Positions 4,830-41,618 of a stretch of DNA of 64,000 nucleotides are shown in pieces. This DNA is from an uncultured Mycoplasmatota bacterium (GTDB taxonomy: Bacteria; Bacillota_I; Bacilli_A; RF39; UBA660), in contig CALEBF010000012.1 in assembly GCA_937944975.1 (NCBI GenBank), forward strand, positions 17,748 to 81,747. The letters run 5' to 3'. The position numbers and the translations under genes are program-made. Under the pieces are notes generated by a model that was not told the origin of the DNA, did not search any database, and worked only from the letters and a program-made list of their open reading frames with translations. Every line of letters starts with the position of its first letter. Position 1 is the first letter of the stretch.

Positions 4830-5612
4830 ATGAAAGTATACGTCGATCTAGTGTTCTTGCTAAACGTAATCTTTGATTTTTTAATCTTGCTTACGACATC
4901 TACGATTCTGCATCGAAGAGCGTCTTATAAGAGACTTTTTTTGGGCTCGATGGTTGGTGCCGTTAGTATTTTCTTTCTCTTTTTAACGTTATCTTCATTT
5001 ACATTATTTTTATTAAAAGTAATGATCAGTATCGGAATGTTGCTTGCGACGTTTGGGTATCATAATTTGAAACAGTTTGTAAGAGAGTTCGCACATCTTT
5101 ACATGGTTAGTATTGTGATGGGTGGCTTTTTATACTTTTTAAATGTTCAATTTTCTTATCAACAAGAAGGTCTTGTTTTTTATCATCGTGGCTTTTCCAT
5201 CAACGTGATCTTTTTATTCATATTTTCGCCTATTATTTTATATACTTATGTAAAACAAGGTAAAAAGAGAGAAGAGTTATACGATCAAATTCATCTAGTC
5301 CAGTTTCACTATCGCGGGAAGACATATGCTTGGAATGGCTTTGTCGATACGGGAAATCATTTGAAAGATCCATACTTTCATCGCCCTGTCATATTGGTAG
5401 AAAAAGATAAGATCGAGGATACGGAGGGAAAGAAAATCTACATTCCTTATGATACGGCAAATCATCATGCGATGTTAGAATGTATTCCTATTACTTCTGT
5501 TACAGTGGATGGAATTCTCAAAAAAAGAAAGATATTGGTGGGGCTTCTAGAAGATAAGATTCATCTAGATGGAGTAGATTGTATTTTACAAACAAGTATA
5601 TGGGAGGGATAA
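4830..5612 (+). CDS. spoIIGA: sporulation sigma-E processing peptidase SpoIIGA
   Basis: Polytopic N-terminus plus C-terminal aspartic-protease DTGN motif. Immediately upstream of sigE. Confidence 0.85.
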   Translation: MKVYVDLVFLLNVIFDFLILLTTSTILHRRASYKRLFLGSMVGAVSIFFLFLTLSSFTLFLLKVMISIGMLLATFGYHNLKQFVREFAHLYMVSIVMGGFLYFLNVQFSYQQEGLVFYHRGFSINVIFLFIFSPIILYTYVKQGKKREELYDQIHLVQFHYRGKTYAWNGFVDTGNHLKDPYFHRPVILVEKDKIEDTEGKKIYIPYDTANHHAMLECIPITSVTVDGILKKRKILVGLLEDKIHLDGVDCILQTSIWEG

Positions 5613-5613
5613 A

Positions 5614-6306
5614 ATGTTAAGAAAAATAATACAGTTTTTACATCGATTATGGAGTGATGGTACAAGTTTGTTTTTTATTGGAAGTAGTGATAAACTACCA
5701 GAACCATTATCAAAAGAGGTTGAAACAGAATGCGTTTTAAAAGCACAAGATGGAGATATTGTCGCACGAGGTAAACTCATTGAACACAATCTAAGGTTGG
5801 TCGTATTTTTAGCAAAAAAGTATGAGAATACAGGAATTGATTTAGAGGATCTCGTCAGTATTGGAACGATTGGTCTAATCAAAGGAGTGAATACTTATCG
5901 GCTCGATAAAAATATTAAACTGGCAACCTACGCTTCCAGATGTATCGATAATGAAATTCTCATGTTCTTAAGAAAGAATAAAAAAAGGCGAGGAGAAATC
6001 AGTTTCGAAGATAATTTATCTTTTGATTCCGAGGGAAATGAGCTACATTTAGAGGATATTTTAGGTACGGAGCCGGATATTGTGACAAAGGGAATCGAAG
6101 AGGCGACGGAAAAAGAATTGCTGTATCGTGAAATCGAAAAATTGAATGGACGTGACAAGCAAATTATGGTATTACGTTATGGCTTGTTCGGACATAAAGA
6201 CATGACACAAAAAGATGTCGCACGTGTTTTAAATATTAGCCAATCCTATATTTCTAGAATCGAAAAGAAAGTCATTCGGAAGCTAAAGAATTTGGTGAAG
6301 TCATAA
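5614..6306 (+). CDS. sigE: RNA polymerase sporulation sigma factor E (pro-sigma-E)
   Basis: Pro-sequence and regions 2-4 closely match B. subtilis pro-sigma-E (YIGGSEALPPPLS vs FIGSSDKLPEPLS; NLRLVV..AKK.ENTGI). Confidence 0.9.
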   Translation: MLRKIIQFLHRLWSDGTSLFFIGSSDKLPEPLSKEVETECVLKAQDGDIVARGKLIEHNLRLVVFLAKKYENTGIDLEDLVSIGTIGLIKGVNTYRLDKNIKLATYASRCIDNEILMFLRKNKKRRGEISFEDNLSFDSEGNELHLEDILGTEPDIVTKGIEEATEKELLYREIEKLNGRDKQIMVLRYGLFGHKDMTQKDVARVLNISQSYISRIEKKVIRKLKNLVKS

Positions 6307-6393: not shown

Positions 6394-7608
6394 ATGTTAA
6401 CATTTGATTTTAAAACTTATATGGGATCTGTGATTACCAAGGATCAATTCAAAAAGTATTTACCGAGATTACAAAAGATTACAAATCATATGAATCGAAA
6501 ATTAGAGATGTTAGATTGGTTAGATGTTTCGACGTCGATTACGAAAGAAGAACTCGAGAGATTAAAGTCATTGGCACAATATACGAAGTCGCATTGCGAT
6601 CTTTTCATCGTGATCGGAATTGGTGGCTCTTATTTGGGAAGCAAGGCTGTGATCGACGCCATTCATCCTTATTTTGGAAGCGATGGACTTCATCCTGAGG
6701 TGATCTATCTTGGAACATCTTTATCCTCTTCTTATATCAAAGATTTGATTGGATGGATCGGAGATAAAGATGTGATCGTGAACGTGATATCGAAATCTGG
6801 AAATACGTTGGAGCCTAATATCGCATTTACAATTTTTCAAAAGTATTTGCGTCGACGTTATGGAAAAGAAGAATTAGAGCATAGACTTATTATCACGACA
6901 GATGAATCGTCTGGCTCTTTATTAGAATTTGCCAAGAAACATCATTTAAATACACTTTCGATTCCTAAGAATATTGGAGGAAGATTTTCTATATTTACGG
7001 CAGCTGGTCTATTTCCTATGGCGGTTGCAGGAATACAAATTGATTCATTATTAAAAGGAGCAAAGCAAGGTAAAAACTATTTAAATGAAGCGTATATGTA
7101 TGCGATGGTAAGAGATATTTTGAGAAAAGAAGGAAGACAGGTAGAATCGTTTACTGTCTACGAACCAAAACTTGCATATTTTACTGAATGGTTAAAACAG
7201 TTGATGATGGAAACACAAGGAAAGAACAAGAAGGGACTACTTACAACTAGCGCGATCAACACGAGAGATTTACACTCTTTAGGACAATACTATCAGGAGG
7301 GAACAGACAATCTATTCGAAACTGTGATCGCAATTGAGAAAACAACGAAAGTAACAGTTCCTCAATACGAAAAAACACTAGACGAAATCAATTTGATTGC
7401 AGCGAAAGCCGTTGCTTCCGCACACAAAAAAGGAAATACACCAAGTAGTATGATTATCATGGATAAGTTAAATGAAAAAAATCTTGGAAGCTTGTGTTAT
7501 TTCTTTATGATGAGTGCTGCGATTGGAGCGTATTTACTCGGAGTAGATCCATTTAATCAGCCAGGTGTAGAAGTGTATAAGAAAGGAATTAAAAGAAGCT
7601 TAAAATGA
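6394..7608 (+). CDS. pgi: glucose-6-phosphate isomerase
   Basis: GIGGSYLG motif and overall short-form PGI architecture. Confidence 0.8.
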   Translation: MLTFDFKTYMGSVITKDQFKKYLPRLQKITNHMNRKLEMLDWLDVSTSITKEELERLKSLAQYTKSHCDLFIVIGIGGSYLGSKAVIDAIHPYFGSDGLHPEVIYLGTSLSSSYIKDLIGWIGDKDVIVNVISKSGNTLEPNIAFTIFQKYLRRRYGKEELEHRLIITTDESSGSLLEFAKKHHLNTLSIPKNIGGRFSIFTAAGLFPMAVAGIQIDSLLKGAKQGKNYLNEAYMYAMVRDILRKEGRQVESFTVYEPKLAYFTEWLKQLMMETQGKNKKGLLTTSAINTRDLHSLGQYYQEGTDNLFETVIAIEKTTKVTVPQYEKTLDEINLIAAKAVASAHKKGNTPSSMIIMDKLNEKNLGSLCYFFMMSAAIGAYLLGVDPFNQPGVEVYKKGIKRSLK

Positions 7609-8273: not shown

Positions 8274-8356
8274 GGAACACAACAACGCAAGTTGTTTTTT
8301 CTTTGGATTGAATAAAAAATCTTTTTTTTCACATCATGAATAAGAAGGAGGAAACC

Positions 8357-9133
8357 ATGGCACGTCACAAAGTAGAAATATGTGGCGTGAATACTGCGAA
8401 TATTAAAGTATTAAGTAGTGAAGAGCAAATGGAATTATTTCGAAAGATGCAAGCTGGGGATCCATTTGCGAAAGATGAATTGATCAAGGGAAATTTAAAA
8501 CTCGTGTTATCCGTCTTACGTAAGTTTAACAATCGTGTCGATAATATGGATGATTTATTTCAGGTAGGATGTATCGGACTGATTAAAGCGATCGATCATT
8601 TTGATCTTTCCTTTGAAGTCAAGTTTTCAACCTATAGTGTTCCGATGATTCTAGGAGAAATCAAGCGTTATTTACGAGATAACAATAGTGTTAGAATTGC
8701 AAGAAGCATCAAAGATACCGCATATAAAGCATTGAAGATCAAGGAAGAGATGACGAATCAAAATGGAAGAGAACCCAGTGTATTAGAAATTAGCAAAGCG
8801 ATGGGACTAACAGAGTATGAAGTGAGCCATGCATTAGATGCTTTAAAAGAAACAGTAAGTATGTTTGAACCAATTTATAATGATGGGGGAGATACGATCT
8901 ATTTGGAAGATCAATTAGAAGACAAAAAATTAGAACGATACCCAATCGAGACGAGGATCGCATTAACAGATGCTTTAGATAGGTTGAAAGGAAAGGAAAA
9001 GTACGTTTTAGAACAACGCTATTTGGTTGGAAAAACACAAATGGAACTAGCAAGTGAGATCGGAATCAGCCAAGCACAGATTTCTCGTTTAGAAAAAAGC
9101 GGAATCGACCATATTAAGAAGATGATATTATAA
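8357..9133 (+). CDS. sigG: RNA polymerase sporulation sigma factor G
   Basis: KVEICGVNT N-terminus as in SigG/SigF, with sigma-70 regions 2 and 4. ATG at 8357 after AAGGAGGA RBS. Confidence 0.85.
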   Translation: MARHKVEICGVNTANIKVLSSEEQMELFRKMQAGDPFAKDELIKGNLKLVLSVLRKFNNRVDNMDDLFQVGCIGLIKAIDHFDLSFEVKFSTYSVPMILGEIKRYLRDNNSVRIARSIKDTAYKALKIKEEMTNQNGREPSVLEISKAMGLTEYEVSHALDALKETVSMFEPIYNDGGDTIYLEDQLEDKKLERYPIETRIALTDALDRLKGKEKYVLEQRYLVGKTQMELASEIGISQAQISRLEKSGIDHIKKMIL

Positions 9134-17194: not shown

Positions 17195-17226
17195 AAAAGA
17201 GAATCGTTTGTGATTCTCTTTTTTAT
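17195..17226. terminator. bidirectional terminator between rhomboid gene and lexA
   Basis: AGAGAATC-gtttgt-GATTCTCT flanked by A-run and T-run. Confidence 0.65.
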
Positions 17227-17840
17227 AATTTTCTATATAGTCCTATCGCTTTTCCTAGGATAGTAACTTGATCCAGAATAATTGGATCCATCGTATCGTT
17301 TTCAGGTTGTAATCGAAAGTATCCATCTTCTTTATAGAAACGTTTTAAAGTTACTTCGTTTTCTGCTGTCATTGCTGCGACGATTTCACCGTTACGTGCT
17401 GTATTTGTTTTTTCAATTACGATGATATCTCCATCGAAGATTCCGGCATTGATCATACTTTCTCCACTGACATTGAGAGTGAATACTTCTTTGTTATTTG
17501 GAATCATATAGGCAGGAAGAGAAAAATATTCGTCAGGATGTTCAATCGCTTCGATTGGGCTTCCTGCTGTAATTTTTCCAAGTAGAGGAACTTCTACTAC
17601 CATGTCGTCTTTTGGAGCAAATTCGTTATCTACTAATAATTCGATTGCTCTATTTTTCGTTTCTTCCTTTTTGATCATTCCCTTATTTTCCAAGTTTTGT
17701 AAGTGCACATGTACTGTTGCAGGGGACGAAACACCAATCGCAGCACATATTTCTCTGACCGTTGGTGGGTATCCGTTGCTTACGACGTATTCTTTAATAT
17801 AGGTTAAAATTTCGTCTTGTCTCTTTGTTAATCCTTTCAT
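17223..17840 (-). CDS. lexA: LexA repressor
   Basis: Winged-helix N-terminus, then the S24 peptidase domain with cleavage-site AG and Ser/Lys dyad region. Confidence 0.9.
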   Translation of the reverse strand: MKGLTKRQDEILTYIKEYVVSNGYPPTVREICAAIGVSSPATVHVHLQNLENKGMIKKEETKNRAIELLVDNEFAPKDDMVVEVPLLGKITAGSPIEAIEHPDEYFSLPAYMIPNNKEVFTLNVSGESMINAGIFDGDIIVIEKTNTARNGEIVAAMTAENEVTLKRFYKEDGYFRLQPENDTMDPIILDQVTILGKAIGLYRKL

Positions 17841-17904
17841 AGCAACCTCCTTTTATATTTACAATATAACATATTTCAACACATAAGTCAAACAATTGTT
17901 TGCG

Positions 17905-17991
17905 TGAACAGATGTTCCTGTTTCAGAATGATAGAAAAAACGTAAACACGAACAATTGTTCACAAAAACCATTGACACGAACAACTGTTCG
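17905..17991. promoter_or_regulatory. three LexA (Cheo/SOS) boxes in the lexA / small-ORF divergent intergenic region
   Basis: TGAACAGATGTTCC (17905-17918), CGAACAATTGTTCA (17949-17962), CGAACAACTGTTCG (17978-17991, perfect CGAACnnnnGTTCG). TTGACA at 17972 and TAAGAT at 17995 (17-nt spacer) form a rightward promoter overlapped by the third box. Confidence 0.75.
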
Positions 17992-18026
17992 TAGTAAGAT
18001 AGAAGTACGAAAGAGAGGTAGTAAAG

Positions 18027-18173
18027 ATGAAAGAAATGTTAAAGAGTAAAATCATGGTAGGATTTGTTGCCTTTATCTTAGGAATTACTTATATGAATGG
18101 AGTACAAACAAGAAAGATGGAGGATACGACGAAACAAACACAAGATAGCTATATCGCTATGAATTTAAAATAA
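18027..18173 (+). CDS. small SOS-regulated membrane protein (48 aa), positional analogue of YneA
   Basis: GAGAGGT RBS then ATG. One predicted TM helix (IMVGFVAFILGITYM). Divergent from lexA with LexA boxes in its promoter. Below the 60-aa cutoff of the ORF track. Confidence 0.45.
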   Translation: MKEMLKSKIMVGFVAFILGITYMNGVQTRKMEDTTKQTQDSYIAMNLK

Positions 18174-18239
18174 AACTTTATTCTTGTCTGGAAGTTTGCT
18201 ATAATAAAAAGAGAGTAAAAAAATAGAAAGGGTAGACAT

Positions 18240-20225
18240 ATGGACAAGGATATCATTAGTAATATAAAGTCGTTAGGAATTGATATGATTCATCAAGCAG
18301 GAAGCGGTCATCCAGGAATTGTTCTTGGAGCTGCTCCTATTATATATACGTTGTTTGCATATCATTTGAATATTAATGTAAATGATCCTCATTGGATCAA
18401 TCGAGATCGTTTTGTGATGAGTGCTGGACACGGATCTGCGCTTCTCTATGCGACGATGCTTATGGCAGGTTATCCACTTACGATCGATGATTTAAAGTCT
18501 TTTCGAAAGATTCATTCTAAAACACCAGGACACCCTGAATATGGGTTGACATCGGGAGTTGAGATGTCTACGGGACCATTAGGGCAAGGAATCGCGAGTG
18601 CGGTTGGAATGGCATTAGGTGGAAAGATTTTAGAAACTCGTTATCAGTTGCATCCGCTTGCAAAGAAAAAAGAGAAACGAAAGATGTTGGATCATAGAGT
18701 ATATGTTTTATGTGGCGATGGAGATTTAATGGAAGGGGTCAGCTATGAAGCTTGTTCTTTCGCCGGAAGTCACAATCTGGATAATTTAATCGTCTTATAT
18801 GATTCCAACAGGGTTAGCTTAGATGGTGGAACGGAACATACTTTCACTGAGAACACAAGAGAACGTTTTCATGCGATGGGATGGCATACAGAATTTGTAA
18901 AAGACGGAGAAGATGTTCGTGAAATTAATCGTGCAATCGAAAAAGCAAAAGAATCTGGGAAACCGTCCTTTATAGAAGTTCGAACTGTGATAGGTCGAGG
19001 ATCTTTGGCAGAGGGAACAAATAAAGTTCATGGGAAACCATTATCCAATGAAGATATCGCTCAGTGGAAAGCGAGTTTAAATTTAACGAATGAGGAGTTT
19101 AGTTATTCTAGTGCGTTGCAGACAGAATTTCAGAGATTGATCGTTGCACATAGTCGTGCAAAATACGATGAATGGGCTAGTGAGTATCGTGAATTCACTG
19201 CCGATAAAGCGCTAGAAAAAGATGACGAATTTAATTTTATTTTTGGAAAGCAAATTTCAGTTGATTTACTGAAATATGAATGGGATTTTCGTTCTATTGA
19301 AGCTGAACCACTACGCAACACAAACCAAACGATCATGACAGATATCGCAAAGTTGGTTCCTAATTTTATCGGTGGAAGCGCTGATCTCGCTTCATCGACA
19401 AACGCCTATTTGTTAGGGCAAAAAGATGTGAGTAAGAAGGATTACAATGGAAGAAACATTTGGTTTGGAGTTCGCGAACACGGGATGGCTGCTATTTTAA
19501 ATGGGCTTGCGCTTTCTAATTTTAGACCATTTGGATCTACTTTCTTGACATTTGCCGACTATTTAAAACCAGCGATGAGAATGTCAGCGTTAATGGAGCT
19601 CCCAGTTACTTATGTATTTACGCATGATTCTATTGAGATTGGTAGCGATGGTCCTACACATCAACCAGTAGAGCAACTTGCAATGTTGCGTTCTATACCA
19701 AATATGACAGTATTCCGTCCAGCGGATGCTAGAGAAATTGTCGGTGCTTGGAACTATATTTTAAATCAAAATATGCCTGTTTCTTTGGTGATTTCAAAAA
19801 CAGCTGTTCCTGTTCTTGCTACGACGAATGCTTCAAACGTAGCAAGAGGAGCTTATATTGTAAGAAAAGAAACAGATAAATTAAATGGAATTATCATAGC
19901 GACAGGAACGGAAGTTCATACTGCTATGAAAGTGGCAGAACGCCTCACACAAGAGAAGATCGACTGTCGTGTTGTAAGTATGCCGAGCAGGGAACTTTTC
20001 TTACGTCAAGAGAAAGAATATCAAGAAGAAGTATTGCCAATTGGATATAAAAAGGTAGTGATCGAGGCAGGATCATCGTTCGGATGGCATCAGTTTGTCT
20101 ATAATGAAAGATATTTGATCACTGTGAATGAATTTGGTGCGAGTGGTTCGCCGCAAGATGTTTTAAAAGAAAAAGGATTTGACGAGGAAACAATTTATGG
20201 AAGAGTTCGAAAACTATTACGTTAG
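18240..20225 (+). CDS. tkt: transketolase
   Basis: GSGHPG TPP-binding motif and GDGDLMEG. 661 aa. Confidence 0.9.
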   Translation: MDKDIISNIKSLGIDMIHQAGSGHPGIVLGAAPIIYTLFAYHLNINVNDPHWINRDRFVMSAGHGSALLYATMLMAGYPLTIDDLKSFRKIHSKTPGHPEYGLTSGVEMSTGPLGQGIASAVGMALGGKILETRYQLHPLAKKKEKRKMLDHRVYVLCGDGDLMEGVSYEACSFAGSHNLDNLIVLYDSNRVSLDGGTEHTFTENTRERFHAMGWHTEFVKDGEDVREINRAIEKAKESGKPSFIEVRTVIGRGSLAEGTNKVHGKPLSNEDIAQWKASLNLTNEEFSYSSALQTEFQRLIVAHSRAKYDEWASEYREFTADKALEKDDEFNFIFGKQISVDLLKYEWDFRSIEAEPLRNTNQTIMTDIAKLVPNFIGGSADLASSTNAYLLGQKDVSKKDYNGRNIWFGVREHGMAAILNGLALSNFRPFGSTFLTFADYLKPAMRMSALMELPVTYVFTHDSIEIGSDGPTHQPVEQLAMLRSIPNMTVFRPADAREIVGAWNYILNQNMPVSLVISKTAVPVLATTNASNVARGAYIVRKETDKLNGIIIATGTEVHTAMKVAERLTQEKIDCRVVSMPSRELFLRQEKEYQEEVLPIGYKKVVIEAGSSFGWHQFVYNERYLITVNEFGASGSPQDVLKEKGFDEETIYGRVRKLLR

Positions 20226-20287: not shown

Positions 20288-20734
20288 ATGCGAACATATT
20301 ATATTTTTCATATCAAAAGAGAATGTACTACATATTACAAGGAAAAGCCGAAGGATTTATATCAATTGCTTCATCATTTATTTTTAATGCCAAGACATTA
20401 TGGACGTTACGGGATTTCTTTCTACGACCAAGTTTGTAACCATTTTGATCAAGAAATCTTAAATTTTTATCTTTCAGGAAAATTTCAATTACAACCGCAA
20501 AATGGGATTTTTTACTTTCCGGAAGGAAACTTAGTCCAAATACAGTCATCTTGTTGTATCGTACGAACGAATTCTAACTTTCCAGCAATTTTTCGTACGT
20601 TTTATTATTATAGCCGGGATTTATTTGTCTGTGATTTTTATAATCAAGATTATTTTTGGCTTTCAAAACACTATCATGAAATCCGAAAGACCTCATATAA
20701 TAAAATAGGAGTTGAAAAGATAGGGAATATCTAG
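20288..20734 (+). CDS. sirA: SirA (YneE)-like sporulation inhibitor of replication, putative
   Basis: 148 aa, N-terminus M.RTYYIFHIK resembles SirA. Position tkt-sirA-yneF matches B. subtilis. Confidence 0.45.
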   Translation: MRTYYIFHIKRECTTYYKEKPKDLYQLLHHLFLMPRHYGRYGISFYDQVCNHFDQEILNFYLSGKFQLQPQNGIFYFPEGNLVQIQSSCCIVRTNSNFPAIFRTFYYYSRDLFVCDFYNQDYFWLSKHYHEIRKTSYNKIGVEKIGNI

Positions 20735-20764: not shown

Positions 20765-20983
20765 ATGGCATTTGTGATAGATTTATTACAAATTTTAGGT
20801 GGTTTTATCGTAGGAGCGATTGCAGGATTCTTTATTGCTCGTAATTATATGAAAAAGTATATGAAGAAAAACCCACCTATTAATGAACAAATGATTCGTG
20901 CGATGATGTCGCAGATGGGGAGAACTCCAAGTCAAAAACAAGTAAAACAAACAATGAAAGCAATGACTAAGTACATGGACTAG
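20765..20983 (+). CDS. yneF: UPF0154 family small membrane protein YneF
   Basis: 72 aa, N-terminal TM followed by a basic tail. Syntenic with B. subtilis yneF. Confidence 0.6.
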
Positions 20984-23579: not shown

Positions 23580-23893
23580 TATATAAAGTCCAAGTAATAT
23601 AAAATTCAAGTAAAAACGTAGATACTTTTATTTAGAGTCTATGTTTTTATTTTCATGAAAAATAGAAGGAATTTTGAATTATAGTTTATATCATATTTAT
23701 AGAGAGTTATTGAAGAAGTGATCTTTTGATAACATTAGGAAGATTGTTTTATTTATCGATTATATAAAATTTATCCCTTTTTTCCTGACAACTGGACAAG
23801 CGTGTGATATTTTGCTATATTATTAGTGCATAAGTGATTATGCTGTGCGCTGTTGCATATAATAATAACGCAACTTGTTGCAAAAAAAAGCTA

Positions 23894-23995
23894 GTGATTC
23901 CCACTATGAGAGGAAATTGAAAAGAAGCGATTCCGGCTTTGACAGGAACTTAAAAAAGCGGCGATTCCGGCCATAACAGTGAACTTAAAAAAGGG
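23894..23995 (+). ncRNA. ToxI/antiQ-like antitoxin RNA: about 2.9 tandem 33-34-nt repeats
   Basis: Units begin at 23894, 23927 and 23961 (GYGATTCC...ARGAAMTTRAAAAG). They lie directly upstream of a terminator and a ToxN-family gene, as in type III TA loci. Confidence 0.6.
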
Positions 23996-24026
23996 ACTAG
24001 AGAGCAAACTCTAGTCCTATTTTTTA
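23994..24026 (+). terminator. rho-independent terminator between antitoxin repeats and toxin gene
   Basis: GGACTAGAG-agcaaa-CTCTAGTCC followed by TTTTTT. Confidence 0.75.
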
Positions 24027-24057
24027 ATTAGAATGCAATATGTTCGAAGGTGATTTT

Positions 24058-24567
24058 ATGAAAAATTTTATATTGGTAAGATTGGATTATAATTATTGTG
24101 ATTATTTAAGACAGTTTGATGATAAAGTTCCTTATAATAAAAATAAAAAAGAATTAAGACCATTTATAGGAATTTTATTTGAAAGAAATAATTGTAAGTA
24201 CTTTGCACCATTATCTAGTCCTAAGCCGAAACATAAAACAATGAAAACTACTTTAGATTTTCTAAAAATAGACAATGGTAATTTAGGAACAATTAATTTT
24301 AATAATATACTACCAGTAACAAATCAAAATATCATTAAGTTGGATTTAGATAAGGATTGTTTTACAAGACAAGAAGAAAAATACATAAAGTTGTTAAAGG
24401 AACAATTGTTTTGGTTAAACCGTAATGATGATAAATTATATGGTAGATCTAAAAAGTTATATAATAAATACGTTAATGGGATATTAAATCATGGTATTGC
24501 TAAAAGATGCTGTAATTTTACATTATTGGAGGAAAAATGTATCGAATATAATAGAATCAAAACATAG
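24058..24567 (+). CDS. toxN: ToxN/AbiQ-family endoribonuclease toxin (type III toxin-antitoxin / abortive infection)
   Basis: Recalled ToxN/AbiQ hallmarks: YL..FDDKVP, PFIGI..E....Y.APLSSPKPKH, C.F.LLEEK. AAGGTGA RBS before the ATG at 24058. Confidence 0.75.
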   Translation: MKNFILVRLDYNYCDYLRQFDDKVPYNKNKKELRPFIGILFERNNCKYFAPLSSPKPKHKTMKTTLDFLKIDNGNLGTINFNNILPVTNQNIIKLDLDKDCFTRQEEKYIKLLKEQLFWLNRNDDKLYGRSKKLYNKYVNGILNHGIAKRCCNFTLLEEKCIEYNRIKT

Positions 24568-26800: not shown

Positions 26801-27379
26801 ATGGGCCATAACCGCAAAGAACAAATGAGACGATATTTTAATGCATCTTACGATTCTAAATTACATTTGAATCAACATTATATAAAAGGAGAAAAAGCTG
26901 TAATTCCAATTCACGTAGAAGCAACCTCGGATATCTATTCTCAGTACGACAAAGAAAACAGAGTTTTAAATGAAACTTTAGTTTCTTATATCGAGCAGAT
27001 TGCTTATTATATTCCATATCAACATTCGATCGTATTGGAGTTCGAGGGAATGACTTTTTCCGAGGAAGAAAAAGCTCTGCTCGTCGATGCGATCACGGAT
27101 CAATTTGGACTTGTTACACACGATATGTCTGTAGAACTTAGGTATAACACGATCAAGTCGATCAATCTATTTTTGATCGGATGTCTCGTACTCGCCTTAT
27201 CGTTTTTCTTGCGCAATGTCGAACATATGAATTATTTTAGCGAAATTCTGTCGATCATAGGAACGTTTTCTATCTGGGAATTTGTCAATACGATCTGGTT
27301 TGAACGTAAGATGAAAAAGATTGACAAGATGAATTCTGGTCAACTTTCTTCATGCACTGTTACATTTGTCGAAGATTAG
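26801..27379 (+). CDS. hypothetical membrane protein
   Basis: Two C-terminal hydrophobic segments. No family recognised. Confidence 0.35.
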   Translation: MGHNRKEQMRRYFNASYDSKLHLNQHYIKGEKAVIPIHVEATSDIYSQYDKENRVLNETLVSYIEQIAYYIPYQHSIVLEFEGMTFSEEEKALLVDAITDQFGLVTHDMSVELRYNTIKSINLFLIGCLVLALSFFLRNVEHMNYFSEILSIIGTFSIWEFVNTIWFERKMKKIDKMNSGQLSSCTVTFVED

Positions 27380-28674
27380 GCATCATGAAACATTTTTCGT
27401 ACGGAAAGATATTGGTGAAGTGTTACGTAGATAACGTTACTTGCCATTGCGATGACGAGTCCCCACATACCGATATTTAGGTAGCTTGCTCCAAACAGAA
27501 TGAGTGTACGTAAAACCATTCCTTGCAGTGTTCCCATCATGGCAGTTTTTGCTTTCCCTGTTGCCTGAAGAGTGCTTGTGAGAGGGGCTTGGATATAATG
27601 GAGAATAAAAATAGGAGCGAGGACTCTTAGATAATCGACTCCTTGATTGGTGTGATAAATAAGATGTAGAAAGATTTCTGGAAATAGACAAAATAGAATT
27701 GTAATAGGAATTCCGATAAGCAAAGAAAACCCAATTGCCTGTCGGATTTTTGTTTTTGTATAGGTATAACGTCTTTTTTCGTAGTTGCGACTTACGACCG
27801 GAATCAATGCTTGGCTGATTGCCATAGAAAAGAAAGATGGAAGTAGCAATAGTGGGAGGACGTATCCATTTAAAATTCCATATTGATTGACGATGAAGGA
27901 ATTAGAATATCCAATTTTTAATAGGACGTACGTTAAGAGAATCGGTTCAAAAAAAGATCCAATACTTCCAATGAGTCTACTGCCTGTTGCAGGCAAACTA
28001 ATCGATAGAATCTCTTTGATGTTTTTCTTTTTCGGTTTGAAATCTTGTTTTGAAATTGTAAAGTTTTTCGGTAAAAAGAAGAAGAGAACGAGAATTGAAG
28101 TGAGTTCGCTTGCGATATTTGATAGAATGATAAAAGCGACCGCATATTCGATTCCCTTGACGAGAAAAATGGGAATTCCAATGGCGAGAATTACGAGTCT
28201 TACGATATCCTCAGTAACGTTGGACACGACGTGAGGTACCATGCGTTGTTTTCCAAAAAAGTATCCGCGCAAGATACTAGAAACACTGATAAACGGAAGG
28301 ACAAAGCCGATTGCGATGAGTCCGTAAAAGCATCTGGGTTCGTGTAAAAGTTCTGAAGCAAGATACGAAGCTCCAAAGAAAAGACCAATTAAGATAATGA
28401 AATTGAGAATAAGAGAGATAGGCAAAATGGAGAAGACTAAATTTTTATGATCGTTTCGTTCTTTGGCTACGAGTGTGGAGATGGCGATTGGAAAACCGAG
28501 TTGCGCAAGGGCAATCAACAGCATGAACGTAGGATTCATAAGCATGTAAATTCCGATTCCTTCTGTTCCAATTAAACGTGTCATGACGATTTTGATCATC
28601 ATTCCTAGAATTTTGGTGATGAGACCGCCGATCATTAAAATAATAGTGGAACGAATAAATTTGCTTTTGTACAT
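27376..28674 (-). CDS. MOP-superfamily flippase (SpoVB / polysaccharide biosynthesis protein family)
   Basis: About 12-14 TM segments. N-terminus LIGTEGIGIYMLMNPTF typical of SpoVB/Wzx-like MOP exporters. Confidence 0.6.
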   Translation of the reverse strand: MYKSKFIRSTIILMIGGLITKILGMMIKIVMTRLIGTEGIGIYMLMNPTFMLLIALAQLGFPIAISTLVAKERNDHKNLVFSILPISLILNFIILIGLFFGASYLASELLHEPRCFYGLIAIGFVLPFISVSSILRGYFFGKQRMVPHVVSNVTEDIVRLVILAIGIPIFLVKGIEYAVAFIILSNIASELTSILVLFFFLPKNFTISKQDFKPKKKNIKEILSISLPATGSRLIGSIGSFFEPILLTYVLLKIGYSNSFIVNQYGILNGYVLPLLLLPSFFSMAISQALIPVVSRNYEKRRYTYTKTKIRQAIGFSLLIGIPITILFCLFPEIFLHLIYHTNQGVDYLRVLAPIFILHYIQAPLTSTLQATGKAKTAMMGTLQGMVLRTLILFGASYLNIGMWGLVIAMASNVIYVTLHQYLSVRKMFHDA

Positions 28675-35162: not shown

Positions 35163-35270
35163 AATTTTTTAAATTTATAAAAGAAAGAATTATAGAAAAA
35201 CATCGACTCCTTTCTTGACAAAAAAGAAAGGAACTAGGTATAATAGTAACAGAATGATAGCGAGGGGTAC

Positions 35271-36003
35271 TATGTCTAAATGGAAATATTTCATTGTTTT
35301 GCTGTTTTGTTTGGCAATTTTTCCAGATGTTGTATCTGCAGAGTCTTGTGATTATAATGTGTTATCCAGATTAAAAAATTATGCTAGTAATATAAAATAT
35401 GACTATAGTTATACCGAGCAAAATAATCAAGTTGTATTTACTGCGCGTTTTACAAATATTTCTGATAATGTCATTTTAACAGATAAGACAACGGGACAAA
35501 CTTATACAAATGTCGGAGAAATTACAATAGGAAACTTACAGCCTGGGAAGAGTTATGAATTTACTGTGATTCCTTCAAACAAAGGTTTAACAAGCGTGAT
35601 TAGACGTCAAAATATCTGGGGACAATGGGTGGAATATGAAGTTCCAACAGATGTAAACGAAAGTTGTAGAAACACAGAGTTAAAGAAGATTTATATTACA
35701 CTTCCATCGTACAACCCTTATTATAAATTACCTGTATGTGAAGGTGCAGAAGAATACGATATGTGTTTTAAATGGCAAAAGCACGAATTATCGGAAGAAC
35801 AATTTATAGAAGATGTAACAGAATATAAAGAGAAACATGCTGTACAAGAAGATGACGACAAAGAAAAAAAAGAAACATCATTGATAGAACAAATTATTAA
35901 GTTATTGCGAGACTATTATTATGTTCCAATTACGATCGCAATTATTATCGTAATTGCAGCAGTTTATATAAAGAAGAAACGAGAAGCAGAGGAAGGCTGG
36001 TAG
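35271..36003 (+). CDS. secreted Cys-rich protein with C-terminal TM anchor, unknown function
   Basis: TTGACA (35212) and TATAAT (35236) lie inside the track ORF. The real start is the ATG at 35271 after GAGGGG. Signal peptide, then eight Cys, then a TM anchor. Confidence 0.5.
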
Positions 36004-36004
36004 T

Positions 36005-38179
36005 ATGAAAAAGATATTTTACGGAATATTAGTCATTGGTATTGTTGGAATTATGGGATATGCTACACTACAAAATGCTGAGGAAGTTGAGGCAAAACCT
36101 ATTCCTCAAGATGAGTTATGTAAACAACCTGGTTATTTTGAAGATAGTTTTAGTTACAAAGAAAATGAATATTGTTCAACTACTTGTGTAGCAAAAGGAT
36201 ATACTGATTTTCCAACTGATATTACAACGGTAAATGTCGATCAAACAGTAAATGCCGGAGGACAATTTCAATGGGAAGAGATTCGAATCAATACGGAATT
36301 TGAATGTACGACAAACATCGATTATTCAAAGTGGTATAACGATTATAATCGCTTGATTGAAACTGCTAAACAAGCCTTGAGAAATATCGCTAGGGAAGCG
36401 CATCAATATCACACAAGAGATGTTATTGGACCTTGTAATATTCGAATTTATAATGGAACATATACAACTTATTCGAATACGAATTCATACGCTAGTGAAT
36501 GTTATAACTATGCCAATAGTACTAATGAATACATTAATTCAATTAGTAAAGTAAATGAATATGCTCCAAATGCTAATTGGAAGAGTGAAGCAACACGACA
36601 ACATATTTCTTTTGACGCACAATATTTTGAGCAAGGAACTAGAGATTGTTATTCATTGGGAGCAACTGGTGATCAGGGTAAGGCGTGTAAACCTGGATAC
36701 AGACCTGATGGTGCGAGCTTATGTTGTAAAGTTAATTCTTGGTATGAGTACAAATGTTATACAGAAAATTATAGTGTATCTAAGGGTGAACTAATTAAAT
36801 ATGAGAAAGTTCAATGTGGAGATACGGCAGATACATGTCATGTTGTAGATACTAAATATTATTGTAGTCAATCTATGCCTGTTTGGGATGTTAATTACGA
36901 TAACTATTGGGTAGATGTATTTAACGATGCAATGAGAAAATTAAAATCAATGGGATCCAATGGATTACCAGGAAAGTTAAAAGCTTGCAATGAATCAAGT
37001 GAGAAGAGAATTCAAAAAATTGCAAAGGATCCACGCACGATTGTACATTATGTAGATCCAACTGACAATTATCATGACGCGGAGAATTTACAGTTAGAAA
37101 CTGTGGTAGAACAGCCACTCACTATGACGACAACTCAAAAAACACCTGCTGCTAATCCAAACATACCGGTGTTGAATACAATTGCTGATGGGGTGTCTAA
37201 CAATGGGAACAGTAGTTTTAGTTTTACTGCATTGGGAAAAACTGCAGGTGTTAGATTATATACACAAACGACCTCAGCTGCTTATTCTCAATATGCCAAT
37301 ACTCAAGTTAAGAAAAAGGCAACTGCAAAATATAAATACGAGTTACCGGATGGATTTTATCAATATACGTTAAAACCTGATGGAAATATCGTTCATAAAC
37401 CGGGATCTACAGGAGCAAGTATGGCAAATCAAGGATCTATTAGCTCTTATGTGGATAGTGGGCGTTATATCGATTTAGGATACTCTAGCTATCCAGTACA
37501 TTATCAGACTCCAACGGGAATTTATCCGATTTCCTTAACTTATAATATTCCAGGAGTTATCGATGGAGATCGTTTGTACGAATGTATGTATCGTGTTAAA
37601 AATCGAATTGCTTGTCCAGAAGGTGAATGCCCTGATCCTGGAGAAGAAACGCCACCTGGAGATGGAGGAAATGATAATCCGACATGTCCAGATGGAGTGT
37701 GTGATGACGACGATCTATATTCTGGGCTCAATGTTGTGTATCGTTCAATAGCGTTATCTGCTCCGTTCCACTATAGAAATGGTAGGGTAAGAGAATCAGG
37801 TGAAAACTGGACTGATCAAGACATAAGCGAATTTATTTTAAACAACCGCGGAGTTTCAGATGATGATGTATATAATAAACAACCAATTTATGAATTTACT
37901 TTGACTCCTGCAGCGATTGCTGATATTCGAAAGTATAATAGTACGCATGAATTTTCTGATTTTAGAACGATGACGTGCTATGGAAAAGATGAGGAAGGAA
38001 AATCGATTGGTACAAAATGTAAGAGTCAATTTATCGACGACATGAAAGGTGTTTTAAATGCATCTGGATCTTGTATTACAAATCGTAGTGCTGCCGGCTT
38101 CTATAGTTGTGCTGGAAAGAAGTCAAATCAGGATCAAATTGATGTCGCGAAGATGTTAAATAAGAATGGAAGTTTATAA
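36005..38179 (+). CDS. large secreted Cys-rich protein (724 aa), unknown function
   Basis: Signal peptide/TM, many paired Cys, and a CPEGECPDPGEETPPGDGGNDNPTCPDGVCDDDD linker. Translationally coupled to the upstream gene. Confidence 0.5.
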   Translation: MKKIFYGILVIGIVGIMGYATLQNAEEVEAKPIPQDELCKQPGYFEDSFSYKENEYCSTTCVAKGYTDFPTDITTVNVDQTVNAGGQFQWEEIRINTEFECTTNIDYSKWYNDYNRLIETAKQALRNIAREAHQYHTRDVIGPCNIRIYNGTYTTYSNTNSYASECYNYANSTNEYINSISKVNEYAPNANWKSEATRQHISFDAQYFEQGTRDCYSLGATGDQGKACKPGYRPDGASLCCKVNSWYEYKCYTENYSVSKGELIKYEKVQCGDTADTCHVVDTKYYCSQSMPVWDVNYDNYWVDVFNDAMRKLKSMGSNGLPGKLKACNESSEKRIQKIAKDPRTIVHYVDPTDNYHDAENLQLETVVEQPLTMTTTQKTPAANPNIPVLNTIADGVSNNGNSSFSFTALGKTAGVRLYTQTTSAAYSQYANTQVKKKATAKYKYELPDGFYQYTLKPDGNIVHKPGSTGASMANQGSISSYVDSGRYIDLGYSSYPVHYQTPTGIYPISLTYNIPGVIDGDRLYECMYRVKNRIACPEGECPDPGEETPPGDGGNDNPTCPDGVCDDDDLYSGLNVVYRSIALSAPFHYRNGRVRESGENWTDQDISEFILNNRGVSDDDVYNKQPIYEFTLTPAAIADIRKYNSTHEFSDFRTMTCYGKDEEGKSIGTKCKSQFIDDMKGVLNASGSCITNRSAAGFYSCAGKKSNQDQIDVAKMLNKNGSL

Positions 38180-38197
38180 TTTCCATTCTTTTTTTCA
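38164..38197 (+). terminator. rho-independent terminator
   Basis: GAATGGAA-9 nt-TTCCATTC followed by T8. Confidence 0.7.
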
Positions 38198-38214
38198 TTA
38201 CTTTTAACAAAAAT

Positions 38215-38242
38215 TTGACAAAATCAAACTTTTGTATATAAT
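38215..38242 (+). promoter_or_regulatory. sigma-A-type promoter (TTGACA, 16 nt, TGtTATAAT)
   Basis: Near-consensus -35 and extended -10 upstream of the lipoprotein gene. Confidence 0.6.
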
Positions 38243-38270
38243 AGGAGTCATCAGGGAGGAGAATGATACA

Positions 38271-38879
38271 ATGGCTTTGAGTAAAACACAAAGCAAAAAG
38301 GCTTTATATAAGAAAGCTTTAGCTGCATTACTTGCAGGAACAATGGGAATGGGAATTGCTGGATGTAGCAATTCAAACGAAGGAACACAACCAGATTCAA
38401 AAGAACAAACGTCAGAGGTAAATGAAGATCCGAAAAGTGAGAAATTTGAACTTCCAACAGAAACGATGAGTGTTGAGGAAACACAGGCTTTGGAAGTTGG
38501 AACAGAGATTATGTTGACAGATTTAAGTAAAATGCCAAACGAAGCAACTTTAGAAGAAATGAATCGTTCTACAGCGTATTTATTAGATTTAAGTTTTAAG
38601 GATCAGAACGGAAAAGATATTGAGGGTGGAGTTATTATGAGTGGAACTTTACCTGATGGAATTTTAGATACAGGGTATATAGATGAACCATTAGAAGATG
38701 GCACAACAAGAAGAACAAAACTAGTTGGGATAACTATCGCACAAGTAGATTCATTTACTCAAGATGAAAATGGACAATGGATCAAAATGCTTACAGATGG
38801 TGAATATTTGTATGAAGGAACTCCTGTTGTTTCAGAAAAATTGTTACAACAATTTGGTGGACCTCAAAAAACTAAATAG
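38271..38879 (+). CDS. lipoprotein, paralogue family member A
   Basis: ATG at 38271 after GGAGG. Lipobox GIAGC. Shares the motif ..EET..L.....I....L.KMPNE.TLEE......Y.......NG with the 41619 and 42330 products. Confidence 0.5.
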   Translation: MALSKTQSKKALYKKALAALLAGTMGMGIAGCSNSNEGTQPDSKEQTSEVNEDPKSEKFELPTETMSVEETQALEVGTEIMLTDLSKMPNEATLEEMNRSTAYLLDLSFKDQNGKDIEGGVIMSGTLPDGILDTGYIDEPLEDGTTRRTKLVGITIAQVDSFTQDENGQWIKMLTDGEYLYEGTPVVSEKLLQQFGGPQKTK

Positions 38880-38895
38880 GGAAACTATTCACATT

Positions 38896-38934
38896 AAAAA
38901 TTGCTTTTAATATATAAAAGCAATTTTTTGTTTT
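38896..38934 (+). terminator. rho-independent terminator
   Basis: AAAATTGCTTTTA-5 nt-TAAAAGCAATTTT followed by a T-run. Confidence 0.65.
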
Positions 38935-39024
38935 AATAACATAGTTATTGATGATGAGGATATCAATTGACATTCTTTTTTTTATTCCGTATAATGAGCT
39001 TAGTATATAGTAAAGAGGGGTAAG

Positions 39025-40377
39025 ATGGGAAAACACAATAGAAAATCATTAAACAAAAAAAGTGTAATTGTTTTATATGCAAAAAAGTATATGAAGATTA
39101 TAGTAGGAATTGTTATCACGTTGATTGTGATAATTTGTGTTGCGACCATGTGGAACCAAGAACGGTTGAAAACGATTGCTGCTGATGTAAGAGAAATTAT
39201 GGAAAAAAATGACCTGACACAAGGACTTTTCCATATCAAAGGAAGTCGAGTTTATTATGAAGATAATGATAAGAAAGAACTAGTGGGTACACTACCTCTC
39301 TTTGGATGGGTAAATGGATATGTGCATTTGACGGAAAATAATGAAATGATTCGTATTTGGAATCATGGGTGGATTACATATAAAAATTATAATCAAAAGA
39401 ATATGAAAACTAGTCTGTTGTTTGCAAATCAAATGCTTACGTACAACACGATGGAAAATGAACAAGTATTTATTGTTCCTTCTACTGGAACTTATAAAAT
39501 AGAGTTATGGGGAGCAAAAGGCGGAGAATCTACTGCTTACCGTGATACGAATCCTTATGTTGGAAAAGGAGCTTATGTTTCAGGAGAAATCTTTTTGTGG
39601 AAAGGTGAGAAACTTTATTTACAAGTTGGATCAAAAGGGGAAGATGGAGAAAAGATTGAAGATTTGAGAAGATTTACTGCCTTTGGATATCCTTCTTCCG
39701 GTGGTAAAGGAGGATATAATGGTGGTGGAGACGGAATGGATGATTCTGAATTAAGCGCCGGCGGAGGTGGCGGAGGAGCTACCGATATTCGTCTAGTTTC
39801 TGGAAATTGGGATGACTTTGATTCTCTTAAGTCACGTATTATGGTTGCCGGAGGTGGCGGAGGAATGAGTCGGTTATATACTTATACTAACACTTCATAC
39901 GCGGATGCTGGATCAAGTGGATCTGGTGGAACTACAGAGGGTATAAAAGCGAAAGTGGTTTTATTTGATGACAATATATATGGTTATGGTTCTACACAAA
40001 CAGAAGGTTATCAATTTGGTGTTGGAGAAAATGGAGAATGGTGCTTATCTACATTAAATGGCCTTGGTGGAGGAGCTGGAGGTTATATGGGATCTCACTC
40101 CGGTGCTTGTAATAAAACAGACTGGTATCTTCCAACAGGTGCTGGCGGTGCTTCTTCATATGTATCTGGATGCAAGAATTGTAAGGCAATTAAAGAATCA
40201 TCTACAGAAGATAATTTAGAATTCGAAAAGAACAGTACTCATTATTCGGGCAAAAAATTTAAAAATATCGTTATGATCGATGGTGATAGCGAGATGCCAA
40301 GTACGAAGGATACGAAAAAGAAAATGACTGGTAATAATGGCGATGGTTATGCACGTATTACAAAGGTAGGTTGGTAA
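39025..40377 (+). CDS. glycine-rich membrane-anchored protein (Gly_rich-like domain)
   Basis: Own promoter (TTGACA 38967, TATAAT 38990). N-terminal TM. TGTYKIELWGAKGG start, followed by repeated GGGGGG tracts. Confidence 0.5.
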   Translation: MGKHNRKSLNKKSVIVLYAKKYMKIIVGIVITLIVIICVATMWNQERLKTIAADVREIMEKNDLTQGLFHIKGSRVYYEDNDKKELVGTLPLFGWVNGYVHLTENNEMIRIWNHGWITYKNYNQKNMKTSLLFANQMLTYNTMENEQVFIVPSTGTYKIELWGAKGGESTAYRDTNPYVGKGAYVSGEIFLWKGEKLYLQVGSKGEDGEKIEDLRRFTAFGYPSSGGKGGYNGGGDGMDDSELSAGGGGGGATDIRLVSGNWDDFDSLKSRIMVAGGGGGMSRLYTYTNTSYADAGSSGSGGTTEGIKAKVVLFDDNIYGYGSTQTEGYQFGVGENGEWCLSTLNGLGGGAGGYMGSHSGACNKTDWYLPTGAGGASSYVSGCKNCKAIKESSTEDNLEFEKNSTHYSGKKFKNIVMIDGDSEMPSTKDTKKKMTGNNGDGYARITKVGW

Positions 40378-40378
40378 C

Positions 40379-41503
40379 ATGATAGATAAGAGATTTATAT
40401 ATTTTGTTTTAGGGATTATTTTAGTTTTTATCGTATTAGAGTTTCTGCTTACCTATGTGCCTTTTTTAGAAAAAGAAACTGCGTATGCTTCGTTTGTAGA
40501 ACAAACAGATAAAATAAAAAAAGAAAAAGTAAATGAGATTACTGAATATCAGTTTGATAATGGCAATTTATATCGGACGCCAACTGGAGATATTTTTGGT
40601 TCCTGGGAGTATCCTAATTTCTGTATCGTTCAAGAATATCCAAGTAAAAAACCTGTGATTACAAGTGAATGCGAAAAAATCACTTATGATATTGCAGCAA
40701 AACATATAGAAAAGACAAGCGATACAAAAGATCTATTAGATGATACGGAAGTAACCGGGAAAGATACGACAAAGCCATTTAGTAGTAAAAAATACTTTGT
40801 AGGGACAAATCCTAATAACTATTTATATTATTCTGGTAGTTGTTATCGAGTTGTAAATATCGCTCAAAATGATACTGTGAAAGTTGTTTACGAGGGAATT
40901 GCAAATTCTGATGGAAGTTGTACTGATGTTGCTGATAATAATTCAGGAATGGTTATGCTTTATACTTGGGATGAAAATAAACAAAGATCTGGTAACTTTG
41001 AGAATGCTTCTACGTTAAAAGGAAATCTCGATCGTTTTTATGAAGAAGAAGAGATCAATACAGTAGCTATGAAGCAACCGATTGATACCAGTGTTATCGC
41101 AATGGCCGATTGGTATATTGGAAAAGTAAACGAAGGCAATACGACGTTACTTGAAGATATACAAAATGAACGAAGCGAAATATCAACGACACAGTTTCCA
41201 TTAGGGCTTTTAAATAATAGTGACTATTTAAAAATATCATGTCAAACATCTGGAGGTAAATCGACTACAGATTGCTCTAAGAATAACTATTTATATAAGT
41301 CAAAATATCAATGGTGGATGATCAACTATGGTGAAGAAAAAGATGCATGGTTTGTTCATAAAGATGGTACGATGAAGTCAGATACAATTGGTTATTCTCA
41401 TGAATATCGATTTAGTGGCGTTAGGATGGCATTCTACTTAAAAGCAGACACTTTACTAACTGGAAATGGAACGGAGAATAGCCCATATCGCATTATTAAA
41501 TAA
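40379..41503 (+). CDS. membrane-anchored extracellular protein, unknown function
   Basis: Coupled to the upstream gene (1-nt gap). N-terminal TM. C-terminus ...YQWWMINYG....AWFVHKDGT......YGVRMAFYLK resembles C-terminal modules of some Firmicute surface proteins. Confidence 0.45.
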   Translation: MIDKRFIYFVLGIILVFIVLEFLLTYVPFLEKETAYASFVEQTDKIKKEKVNEITEYQFDNGNLYRTPTGDIFGSWEYPNFCIVQEYPSKKPVITSECEKITYDIAAKHIEKTSDTKDLLDDTEVTGKDTTKPFSSKKYFVGTNPNNYLYYSGSCYRVVNIAQNDTVKVVYEGIANSDGSCTDVADNNSGMVMLYTWDENKQRSGNFENASTLKGNLDRFYEEEEINTVAMKQPIDTSVIAMADWYIGKVNEGNTTLLEDIQNERSEISTTQFPLGLLNNSDYLKISCQTSGGKSTTDCSKNNYLYKSKYQWWMINYGEEKDAWFVHKDGTMKSDTIGYSHEYRFSGVRMAFYLKADTLLTGNGTENSPYRIIK

Positions 41504-41511
41504 TAAATGAT

Positions 41512-41541: not shown

Positions 41542-41618
41542 CATGTGATTTACAAACTGCTTGACAACTAGAATCATTCTTGTATAATATTTTTTTGTTA
41601 ATAAGGGGGGTGGATGAA

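Follow-up and report, generated by a model that had tools for sequence, protein, structure and literature searches.

Small membrane-bound proteins that inhibit cell division during the SOS response are today regarded as more widespread than SulA, and a handful of them are known (YneA, SosA, ChiZ, DivS and SidA). YneA, SosA, ChiZ and DivS are small membrane proteins, and the genes of YneA and SosA adjoin lexA. The transmembrane (TM) segment of YneA binds TM7 of FtsW and blocks septal peptidoglycan synthesis, and the same FtsW site is predicted for SosA, ChiZ and SidA (PMC13396833). YneA itself is cleared by CtpA and YlbL (PMC6051672). SosA, a late-stage division inhibitor of 77 amino acids (aa) in Staphylococcus, is 25–60% identical within the genus and shares no clear homology with other Gram-positive inhibitors; its membrane-proximal segment is essential for activity, and its extreme C-terminus governs CtpA-dependent turnover (PMC6851548). 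Here, we describe a gene for a 48-aa single-pass membrane protein that lies divergent from lexA in a 64,000-nucleotide (nt) stretch of contig CALEBF010000012.1 (assembly GCA_937944975.1, positions 17,748 to 81,747), hereafter the window, from an uncultured Mycoplasmatota bacterium of the RF39 lineage. The gene is conserved as a coding sequence and appears to be controlled by LexA, and a role as an SOS-induced inhibitor of late cell division is the function that we favor for its product.

The regulatory region and the two divergent genes contain the following features (window coordinates, with the strand in brackets where one applies):

17223–17840 (−): lexA, the SOS repressor, 205 aa (TIGR00498, 8.3e-70, 234.5 bits against a cut-off of 110.95; PF01726, LexA_DNA_bind, and PF00717, Peptidase_S24)
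17863–17891 (−): lexA promoter, with −35 TTGACT (17891..17886), a 17-nt spacer and a TG-extended −10 TATATT (..17863); promoter scan, 10/12 matches, same arrangement in related loci
17889–17902: SOS box 1, CAAACAATTGTTTG, a degenerate palindrome overlapping the lexA −35, likely the autoregulation operator
17905–17918: SOS box 2, TGAACAGATGTTCC, an extra box, exact GAAC-N4-GTTC, present only in the closest relatives
17949–17962: SOS box 3, CGAACAATTGTTCA, an extra box, exact GAAC-N4-GTTC
17972–18000 (+): small-gene promoter from the promoter scan, with −35 TTGACA (17972–17977), a 17-nt spacer and −10 TAAGAT (17995–18000)
17978–17991: SOS box 4, CGAACAACTGTTCG, filling the −35/−10 spacer of the small gene, CGAAC-N4-GTTCG with 0 mismatches
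18013–18019 (+): Shine–Dalgarno (SD) sequence GAGAGGT of the small gene, 7 nt before the ATG
18027–18173 (+): small gene, encoding the 48-aa single-pass membrane protein MKEMLKSKIMVGFVAFILGITYMNGVQTRKMEDTTKQTQDSYIAMNLK

The small open reading frame (ORF) and lexA are thus separated by a spacer of 186 bp that carries two back-to-back promoters. An earlier reading of this DNA from its letters alone (the sequence-only reading) had picked out the 147-nt ORF, which it called unannotated, and its GAGAGGT ribosome-binding site, and the ORF and the site were confirmed at exactly these positions. In the predicted mRNA fold, which is no better than that of shuffles (z = −1.35), both the SD and the ATG are left unpaired; the implied 5' untranslated region (5'UTR) is about 20 nt long in the window, and a GGAGG or AGGAG is found at the same distance from the ATG in relatives.

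To place the ORF in a comparative context, LexA served as the query by which 80 related loci were collected, with each species represented by a single genome; these are all metagenome-assembled genomes (MAGs) of uncultured gut 'Bacilli/Tenericutes/Firmicutes', in which LexA is 61–81% identical. A detector that required an ATG-started ORF of 35–95 aa, preceded by an SD, with an N-proximal TM segment and divergent from lexA, found such an ORF, starting 118–231 nt from lexA (median ~132), in 72 of the 77 loci that had sufficient DNA upstream. The corresponding yield was 0.1 per 77 for dinucleotide shuffles, 0 for the opposite strand and 2/72 for a distal control region. After manual review, in which L011 was rescued and L047 was scored as truncated, a single-TM ORF of 42–57 aa was recognized in 75 of the 79 evaluable loci. 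The close relative L081, at ~86–90% nucleotide identity, keeps the four boxes, the promoter, the SD and an intact reading frame. The four remaining loci (L025, L060, L071 and L079) lack both the promoter and the small ORF, here called the cassette, and keep lexA and its own box; these species are natural knock-outs. A polA-like gene comes directly next after the loss of the cassette in L060, and a glycosyltransferase gene does so in L071.

The gene that follows the small ORF varies among the loci (tkt, a polA-like gene, a glycosyltransferase gene, yneF or others), and the ORF stays beside lexA whichever it is, indicating that it is linked to lexA rather than to tkt. In addition, the Nei–Gojobori ratio of nonsynonymous to synonymous substitution rates (dN/dS) was 0.05–0.25 in all 33 computable close pairs, which came from several subclades. 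As the downstream gene varies and the ORF is under purifying selection, the protein itself is what is selected, and the view that the 48-aa ORF is a genuine protein-coding gene is well supported. The ORF is picked up by gene callers in close relatives, where it is listed as a nameless or hypothetical protein, often with a spurious upstream ATG as its start. The caller products in L081–L084 (P0002 and P0003) are 57 or 66 aa long and begin at an ATG inside the predicted −10/5'UTR region; these longer calls are very probably mis-starts, the conserved start being the SD-preceded ATG of MKEM.... Gene callers systematically overlook this small-protein family or assign it the wrong start.

CGAACN4GTTCG is the published SOS-box consensus for B. 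subtilis and S. aureus (PMC9578287), and box 4 matches it perfectly. The sequence-only reading had placed three LexA boxes in the spacer, one of them perfect and lying inside a rightward TTGACA/TAAGAT promoter. The perfect box is indeed there, and three exact boxes were found, but the total rises to four when the degenerate box over the lexA −35 is included. Across the 64-kb window, the exact GAAC-N4-GTTC pattern has 4 matches, 3 of which fall within 86 bp at this locus (17906, 17950 and 17979), against an expectation of 0.71 for the whole window, and 0 of 100 shuffles reached 4. A strict regular expression for the box was rejected as an operator detector, since it missed most of the relatives' operators (CGAAT... 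and AAAC... variants), and it was replaced by position-anchored extraction.

With this extraction, a clade-wide design emerged across the 75 loci, consisting of TTGACA, the box CGAA[C/T]-N3-TGTTCG and a −10. The −35 reads TTGAnn in 75/75 loci (TTGACA in 68) and starts 51–64 nt before the ATG; it is followed by a 14-bp box and then by the −10, which is usually TGnTAnnAT. Among the 75 loci, the counts in the spacer box are C62 G54 A73 A75 C44/T23 ... T66 G63 T69 T65 C52 G65. On the lexA side, most of the 75 loci have a box CAAACAnnTGTTTG beside 'agt' (the reverse complement of TTGACT), where it abuts or overlaps the lexA −35, and SOS box 1 is the lone lexA-side box that nearly all relatives retain. 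Box 3 is identical in L081, and a similar extra box occurs in L008; box 2 has an altered form in L081 and is missing from most relatives. The window, L081 and L008 have an expanded lexA–ORF spacer with extra boxes, 186 nt in the window versus ~130 nt in the clade and placed at 5844–6027 in L081, and the two additional boxes of the window and its closest relatives give four operators instead of the clade-typical two. Judged from an operator that overlaps the core promoter, LexA control of the small gene is well supported, which would make the gene a member of the Firmicutes LexA regulon.

The window protein has a basic N-terminus (residues 1–8), a TM segment at about residues 9–27 and a 21-aa polar tail that ends in YIAMNLK. 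Similar proportions hold throughout the family, in which the length is 42–57 aa (median 48), the TM begins at about residue 8 and the C-terminal tail is 16–27 aa long (median 21). The two flanks of the TM differ in net charge, with +2.8 on the N-terminal side and −1.0 over the ten residues that follow the TM, and the combination of hydropathy and the positive-inside rule predicts an N-in/C-out orientation in 72 of the 75 proteins. An AlphaFold2 (AF2) model built from a 45-sequence alignment is a single helix, with a mean predicted local distance difference test score (pLDDT) of 94 for residues 11–20 and 87 for residues 21–30; the tail is of low confidence, and the model is uninformative on the C-terminal motif described below. 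Hydropathy and AF2 thus agree, as predictions, with the one TM helix of the sequence-only reading, and the protein is predicted to be bitopic, with its N-terminus inside and its C-terminus outside.

The conservation of the protein is concentrated in two regions. The TM and the juxtamembrane segment are the most conserved part, reading LFYxVIxxGVxxLNxRFxYLN in the largest subclade; family-wide, the TM is followed by L/M/V in 99% of sequences and then by E/D/N. The second region is a C-terminal motif, [IVL]-x-[ILM]-N, in which the first hydrophobic position is [IVL] in 100% of sequences and the second is hydrophobic in 93% (mostly I/L/M). The acidic or polar linker between the two motifs is highly variable, and lysines are conserved at the N-terminus, where the window protein has them at aligned positions 2 and 6.

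A single-sequence search returned 5 homologues. A search of 5.8 billion proteins with a 67-sequence profile returned 66 hits of 38–83 aa, all unnamed or labeled 'hypothetical protein', from sources that include Candidatus Faecimonas, Bacilli bacterium and Mycoplasmatota. When 1.84 billion representatives were scanned exhaustively with HMMER, 213 clusters were obtained at E ≤ 1e-3, the best 150 of which are all 34–83 aa long, and the family is accordingly taken to be about 213 clusters at 50% identity. The few longer or ~77-aa hits that were inspected look N-terminally over-extended or like apparent read-through products. Neither the window protein nor any of the 67 aligned members had a Pfam match, including to LysM (PF01476), and the window protein matched 0 NCBIfam families at E ≤ 1. 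The sequence-only reading had remarked that the product has no LysM domain, and the short tails of the family accord with this. The protein is best read as belonging to a previously undescribed small-protein family, new in sequence and apparently confined to uncultured gut Bacilli of RF39-like lineages. The kind of system, a LexA-controlled small membrane division inhibitor adjoining lexA, is already known; by sequence, the present protein is the shortest such candidate in Firmicutes and does without the LysM that YneA requires.

Downstream of the small gene, the window continues with the following features:

18197–18205 (+): extended −10 TGcTATAAT, likely tkt's own promoter, kept in L081
18240–20225 (+): tkt (transketolase), the downstream neighbor of the small gene (TIGR00232, 1.6e-223)
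20288–20734 (+): 148-aa ORF, weakly SirA-like (PF10747, sub-threshold), a synteny marker
20765–20983 (+): 72-aa membrane protein of the UPF0154/YneF family (PF03672, 1.4e-30), a synteny marker

The gene order in the window is therefore lexA<>ORF-tkt-SirA-like-YneF, where <> marks the divergent pair, and it is simply lexA<>ORF-yneF in several relatives. The order in B. subtilis is lexA<>yneA-yneB-ynzC-tkt-sirA(yneE)-yneF. The window order mirrors this one, and the small ORF thus occupies the yneA slot of an ancient Bacilli neighborhood; the placement opposite lexA that the sequence-only reading had likened to that of yneA thus gains support from the tkt–SirA-like–YneF synteny. In B. subtilis, ynzC and yneF carry the locus tags BSU17880 and BSU17910, respectively (PMC3814617). 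The 148-aa ORF has SirA as its sole Pfam match (PF10747, E 0.0055, 17.6 bits against a cut-off of 26), which nonetheless covers profile positions 1–137 of 140, and a phmmer search of PDB sequences returned no SirA and only villin-1 and a phage tail terminator (E 0.19 and 0.43). This ORF could be a form of SirA, which inhibits replication in sporulation, that has diverged strongly. Its place between tkt and yneF matches that of B. subtilis sirA (yneE), and ORFs similar to it directly follow the small gene in L006 and L040.

Several features of the window (34% G+C) bear on whether the organism has a cell wall to divide. MurF scores above its curated cut-off, and there are genes resembling spoIIGA (4830–5612), sigE (5614–6306) and sigG (8336–9133), with glucose-6-phosphate isomerase (6394–7608) inserted among them, as well as a spoVB-like gene on the minus strand (27376–28674), most of the sporulation-gene scores being below the equivalog cut-offs. 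MurF together with the sporulation genes indicates an organism that is walled, makes peptidoglycan and so has a target for such an inhibitor; by the same gene content, it is probably spore-forming. RF39-type orders are, moreover, mostly predicted to be walled (PMC10868615). The idea that the organism is a wall-less mollicute and for this reason does without LysM was rejected because the window encodes MurF and sporulation genes, and the absence of LysM is therefore not explained by missing peptidoglycan.

Among the known inhibitor genes, the small gene resembles yneA of B. subtilis and Listeria in its setting, since it is divergent from lexA, has Cheo-type LexA boxes, encodes an N-terminal single TM with the C-terminus outside, and heads a neighborhood that continues into tkt, a SirA-like gene and yneF. 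The TM of the small protein is also constrained in sequence, consistent with the YneA TM being the element that binds FtsW TM7. YneA, however, is about 105 aa long, whereas the small protein has 48 aa and neither LysM nor any other domain, and yneB and ynzC are absent from the window locus. The comparison with SosA was made by description, and the family profile retrieved nothing named SosA among the matches listed. Like SosA, the protein is encoded divergently from lexA, is small and bitopic with an extracellular C-terminus, lacks LysM, and has a conserved membrane-proximal segment and a conserved extreme C-terminus that flank a variable stretch. It is ~30 residues shorter than SosA, with a tail of ~21 aa versus ~47 aa, and belongs to a different, uncultured lineage.

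Other parallels lie outside the Firmicutes. SidA of Caulobacter has 29 aa. As a mini-protein with almost no extracellular part, it blocks FtsW-dependent constriction, and SidA and DidA (Caulobacter) as well as ChiZ and DivS (Actinobacteria) are, like the proposed role of the small protein, damage-induced small membrane proteins that act on the late divisome (PMC9578287, PMC13396833). They differ from the small protein in having unrelated sequences, a different phylum and a different operator type; in addition, the SidA gene is not adjacent to lexA, and ChiZ carries LysM.

Taken together, these comparisons lead us to consider it moderately probable that the small protein is an SOS-induced late-division inhibitor, which by analogy would probably target the FtsW–PBP2B synthase (PBP, penicillin-binding protein) by way of its TM and juxtamembrane region and would carry a C-terminal turnover signal. 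In an undamaged cell, LexA would sit on the operator that fills the −35/−10 spacer of the small gene, with three further boxes in this genome, and a separate operator over the lexA −35 would repress lexA itself, as the sequences and positions of the operators suggest. Upon DNA damage, RecA-stimulated self-cleavage of LexA, a step established for the SOS response in general, would de-repress the gene, and the short unstructured 5'UTR (~20 nt) with its strong SD would allow immediate translation. The protein would then insert into the membrane with its ~21-aa tail outside the cell, and its conserved TM/juxtamembrane segment may engage the late divisome, most plausibly the septal peptidoglycan synthase FtsW–PBP2B, so that by analogy septation would be blocked until repair is done. 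The C-terminal [IVL]-x-[ILM]-N might serve as a handle for an extracytoplasmic PDZ protease of the CtpA/YlbL type, which would clear the protein and reset the checkpoint; this last step is speculative and borrowed from SosA and YneA. The pattern of two conserved motifs closely fits the scheme of activity plus turnover of these two inhibitors, on which the comparison is modeled. Because YneA inhibition needs the binding of peptidoglycan by LysM and the small protein has only a ~21-aa tail, the inhibitory step itself would have to differ.

A more specific version can be put forward only tentatively, and we would stop short of calling it probable. In this version, the window protein is the founding member of a family of ~48-aa SOS checkpoint effectors of RF39-like gut Bacilli, positional descendants of the yneA slot that lack a peptidoglycan-binding domain and that might block the SEDS–bPBP (shape, elongation, division and sporulation protein–class B PBP) septal synthase by means of the TM helix, the juxtamembrane LNxRFxYLN of most members and a strand formed by the C-terminal [IVL]-x-[ILM]-N. 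Bolder still would be a reading in which the tail is detached by cleavage and reports DNA damage outside the cell as a released signal.

A number of points weigh against a division inhibitor. The sequence-only reading had suggested a YneA analogue, perhaps a minimal inhibitor, and the position, regulation, topology and conservation pattern do match those of YneA and SosA, but the match does not extend to sequence: no homology to YneA was found in Pfam, NCBIfam or the profile searches, and among the matches listed in the large profile searches, nothing is named YneA or SosA and nothing exceeds 83 aa. The assignment to division is drawn purely by analogy, and FtsW, PBPs (PBP2B) and CtpA/YlbL-type proteases were absent among the 32 window ORFs scanned. 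The TM of B. subtilis YneA, when tested alone, localizes to the division site without inhibiting, and LysM is required (PMC13396833); it is thus not obvious that a 21-aa tail would suffice. The loss of the cassette in four related lineages indicates that it is dispensable, and, as most loci lack a terminator after the ORF, part of its selective value could lie in SOS-driven read-through.

The alternative that survives best builds on this last point and holds that the gene has some other SOS-regulated membrane role (in a membrane protease, a transporter, sporulation septation or DNA uptake) or serves mainly as an SOS-inducible promoter for tkt or polA. No terminator was found between the small gene and tkt (18173–18240), and a terminator-like hairpin lies within 40 nt of the stop codon of the small ORF in only ~10 of the 75 loci, so that read-through into the downstream gene is likely at most of them. 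Polymerase genes come next in ~20 loci (L042–L075 and others), where a polA-like 5'-3' exonuclease/DNA polymerase I gene (MKKIILVDGNNLLFRSYY...) follows the small ORF, usually without an intervening terminator, and where SOS read-through could induce polA. The sporulation genes of the organism and the SirA-like neighbor would also be in keeping with such a role. Nevertheless, the downstream gene changes while the ORF's own protein sequence is held by purifying selection, tkt has its own extended −10 promoter, and we found nothing that positively supports any one alternative function; we regard this alternative as unlikely.

A somewhat less probable alternative is a toxin of the TisB/DinQ kind, made in the SOS response and perturbing membranes, which would depolarize the membrane and lead to dormancy or persistence instead of a division block. 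In E. coli, TisB and DinQ are likewise LexA-controlled small single-TM proteins (PMC8145889, PMC3567139), and, like them, the present protein is very small, LexA-repressed as far as its operator tells, and free of any recognizable domain. In type I systems, however, antisense RNAs and a structured primary transcript that is translationally inert restrain the toxin (PMC5066626), whereas the small gene has no antisense RNA partner that we could find and no long structured 5'UTR or translationally inert transcript: its leader of ~20 nt is short, its strong SD is unpaired, the fold is unremarkable (z = −1.35), no minus-strand promoter was found in the spacer besides that of lexA, and an Rfam scan of the spacer returned no family, the palindrome-driven matches being far below threshold. 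Furthermore, and unlike in TisB and DinQ, ~40% of the protein is a polar tail with conserved juxtamembrane and C-terminal motifs, which argues for specific protein contacts rather than bulk membrane damage, and its fixed place beside lexA matches the division inhibitors and not TisB or DinQ.

It is quite improbable that the protein is the precursor of an exported peptide, from which a signal peptidase would free a peptide of ~20–25 aa after DNA damage, either as a signal or as an inactive by-product. The layout of a basic n-region, ~20 uncharged residues, small residues (..NG/VQ, ..IGA/.., ..LNA/RF) and then a polar tail would suit such a precursor. In this family, conservation peaks in the hydrophobic segment and the residues just behind it and is lowest in the center of the presumptive mature peptide; precursors of exported peptides usually show the opposite pattern. 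The AF2 model also has the TM as one continuous helix that runs into the tail. In 2010, Mo and Burkholder reportedly observed that YneA is processed and released and that its full-length form is the active one.

Finally, the possibility that there is no functional gene at all, and that a chance ORF or an upstream leader peptide lies in the lexA–tkt spacer, was rejected as hardly tenable, because the ORF, although very short, without a database family and situated in an AT-rich intergenic region, was detected far above the shuffles (72/77 versus 0.1/77 loci), has a low dN/dS and a conserved SD, is kept beside different downstream genes and has 213 clusters of homologues.

If the proposed division inhibitor is real, its family would comprise the smallest SOS division inhibitors of Gram-positive bacteria and would offer a natural minimal peptide template for the inhibition of FtsW. 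The 2026 study in which the YneA TM was found to dock on FtsW TM7 and yet to need LysM (PMC13396833) implies that a conserved 48-aa family without LysM would reveal the minimal requirements for an FtsW block. The two short conserved extracellular motifs are directly mutable. The family would also offer a first entry point to the DNA-damage checkpoint of the RF39-like Bacilli, a large gut lineage that is uncultured and genome-reduced, and would suggest that the lexA<>inhibitor-tkt-sirA-yneF neighborhood is ancient in Bacilli, with the inhibitor itself evolving beyond recognition.

Three other loci of the window were noted in passing. The stretch 23884–24567 has the look of a type III toxin–antitoxin locus of the ToxIN kind, with ToxN at 24040–24567 (PF13958, 1.7e-46) and 3.2 tandem copies of a 34-nt repeat just upstream of it (23884–23993) that could be a ToxI-like antitoxin RNA array; a ToxN gene is present at the same place in the close relatives L081 and L082. 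A 450-aa membrane-anchored protein with an ALK/LTK glycine-rich domain (39025–40377; PF12810, 2.9e-46) sits in a cluster of secreted or lipoprotein-like ORFs (35215–42239), four of which were scanned and gave no family match. An unexpected find for a gut Firmicute is a 325-aa ORF on the minus strand (57227–58204) with a match to the tocopherol cyclase family (PF14249, 2e-17).

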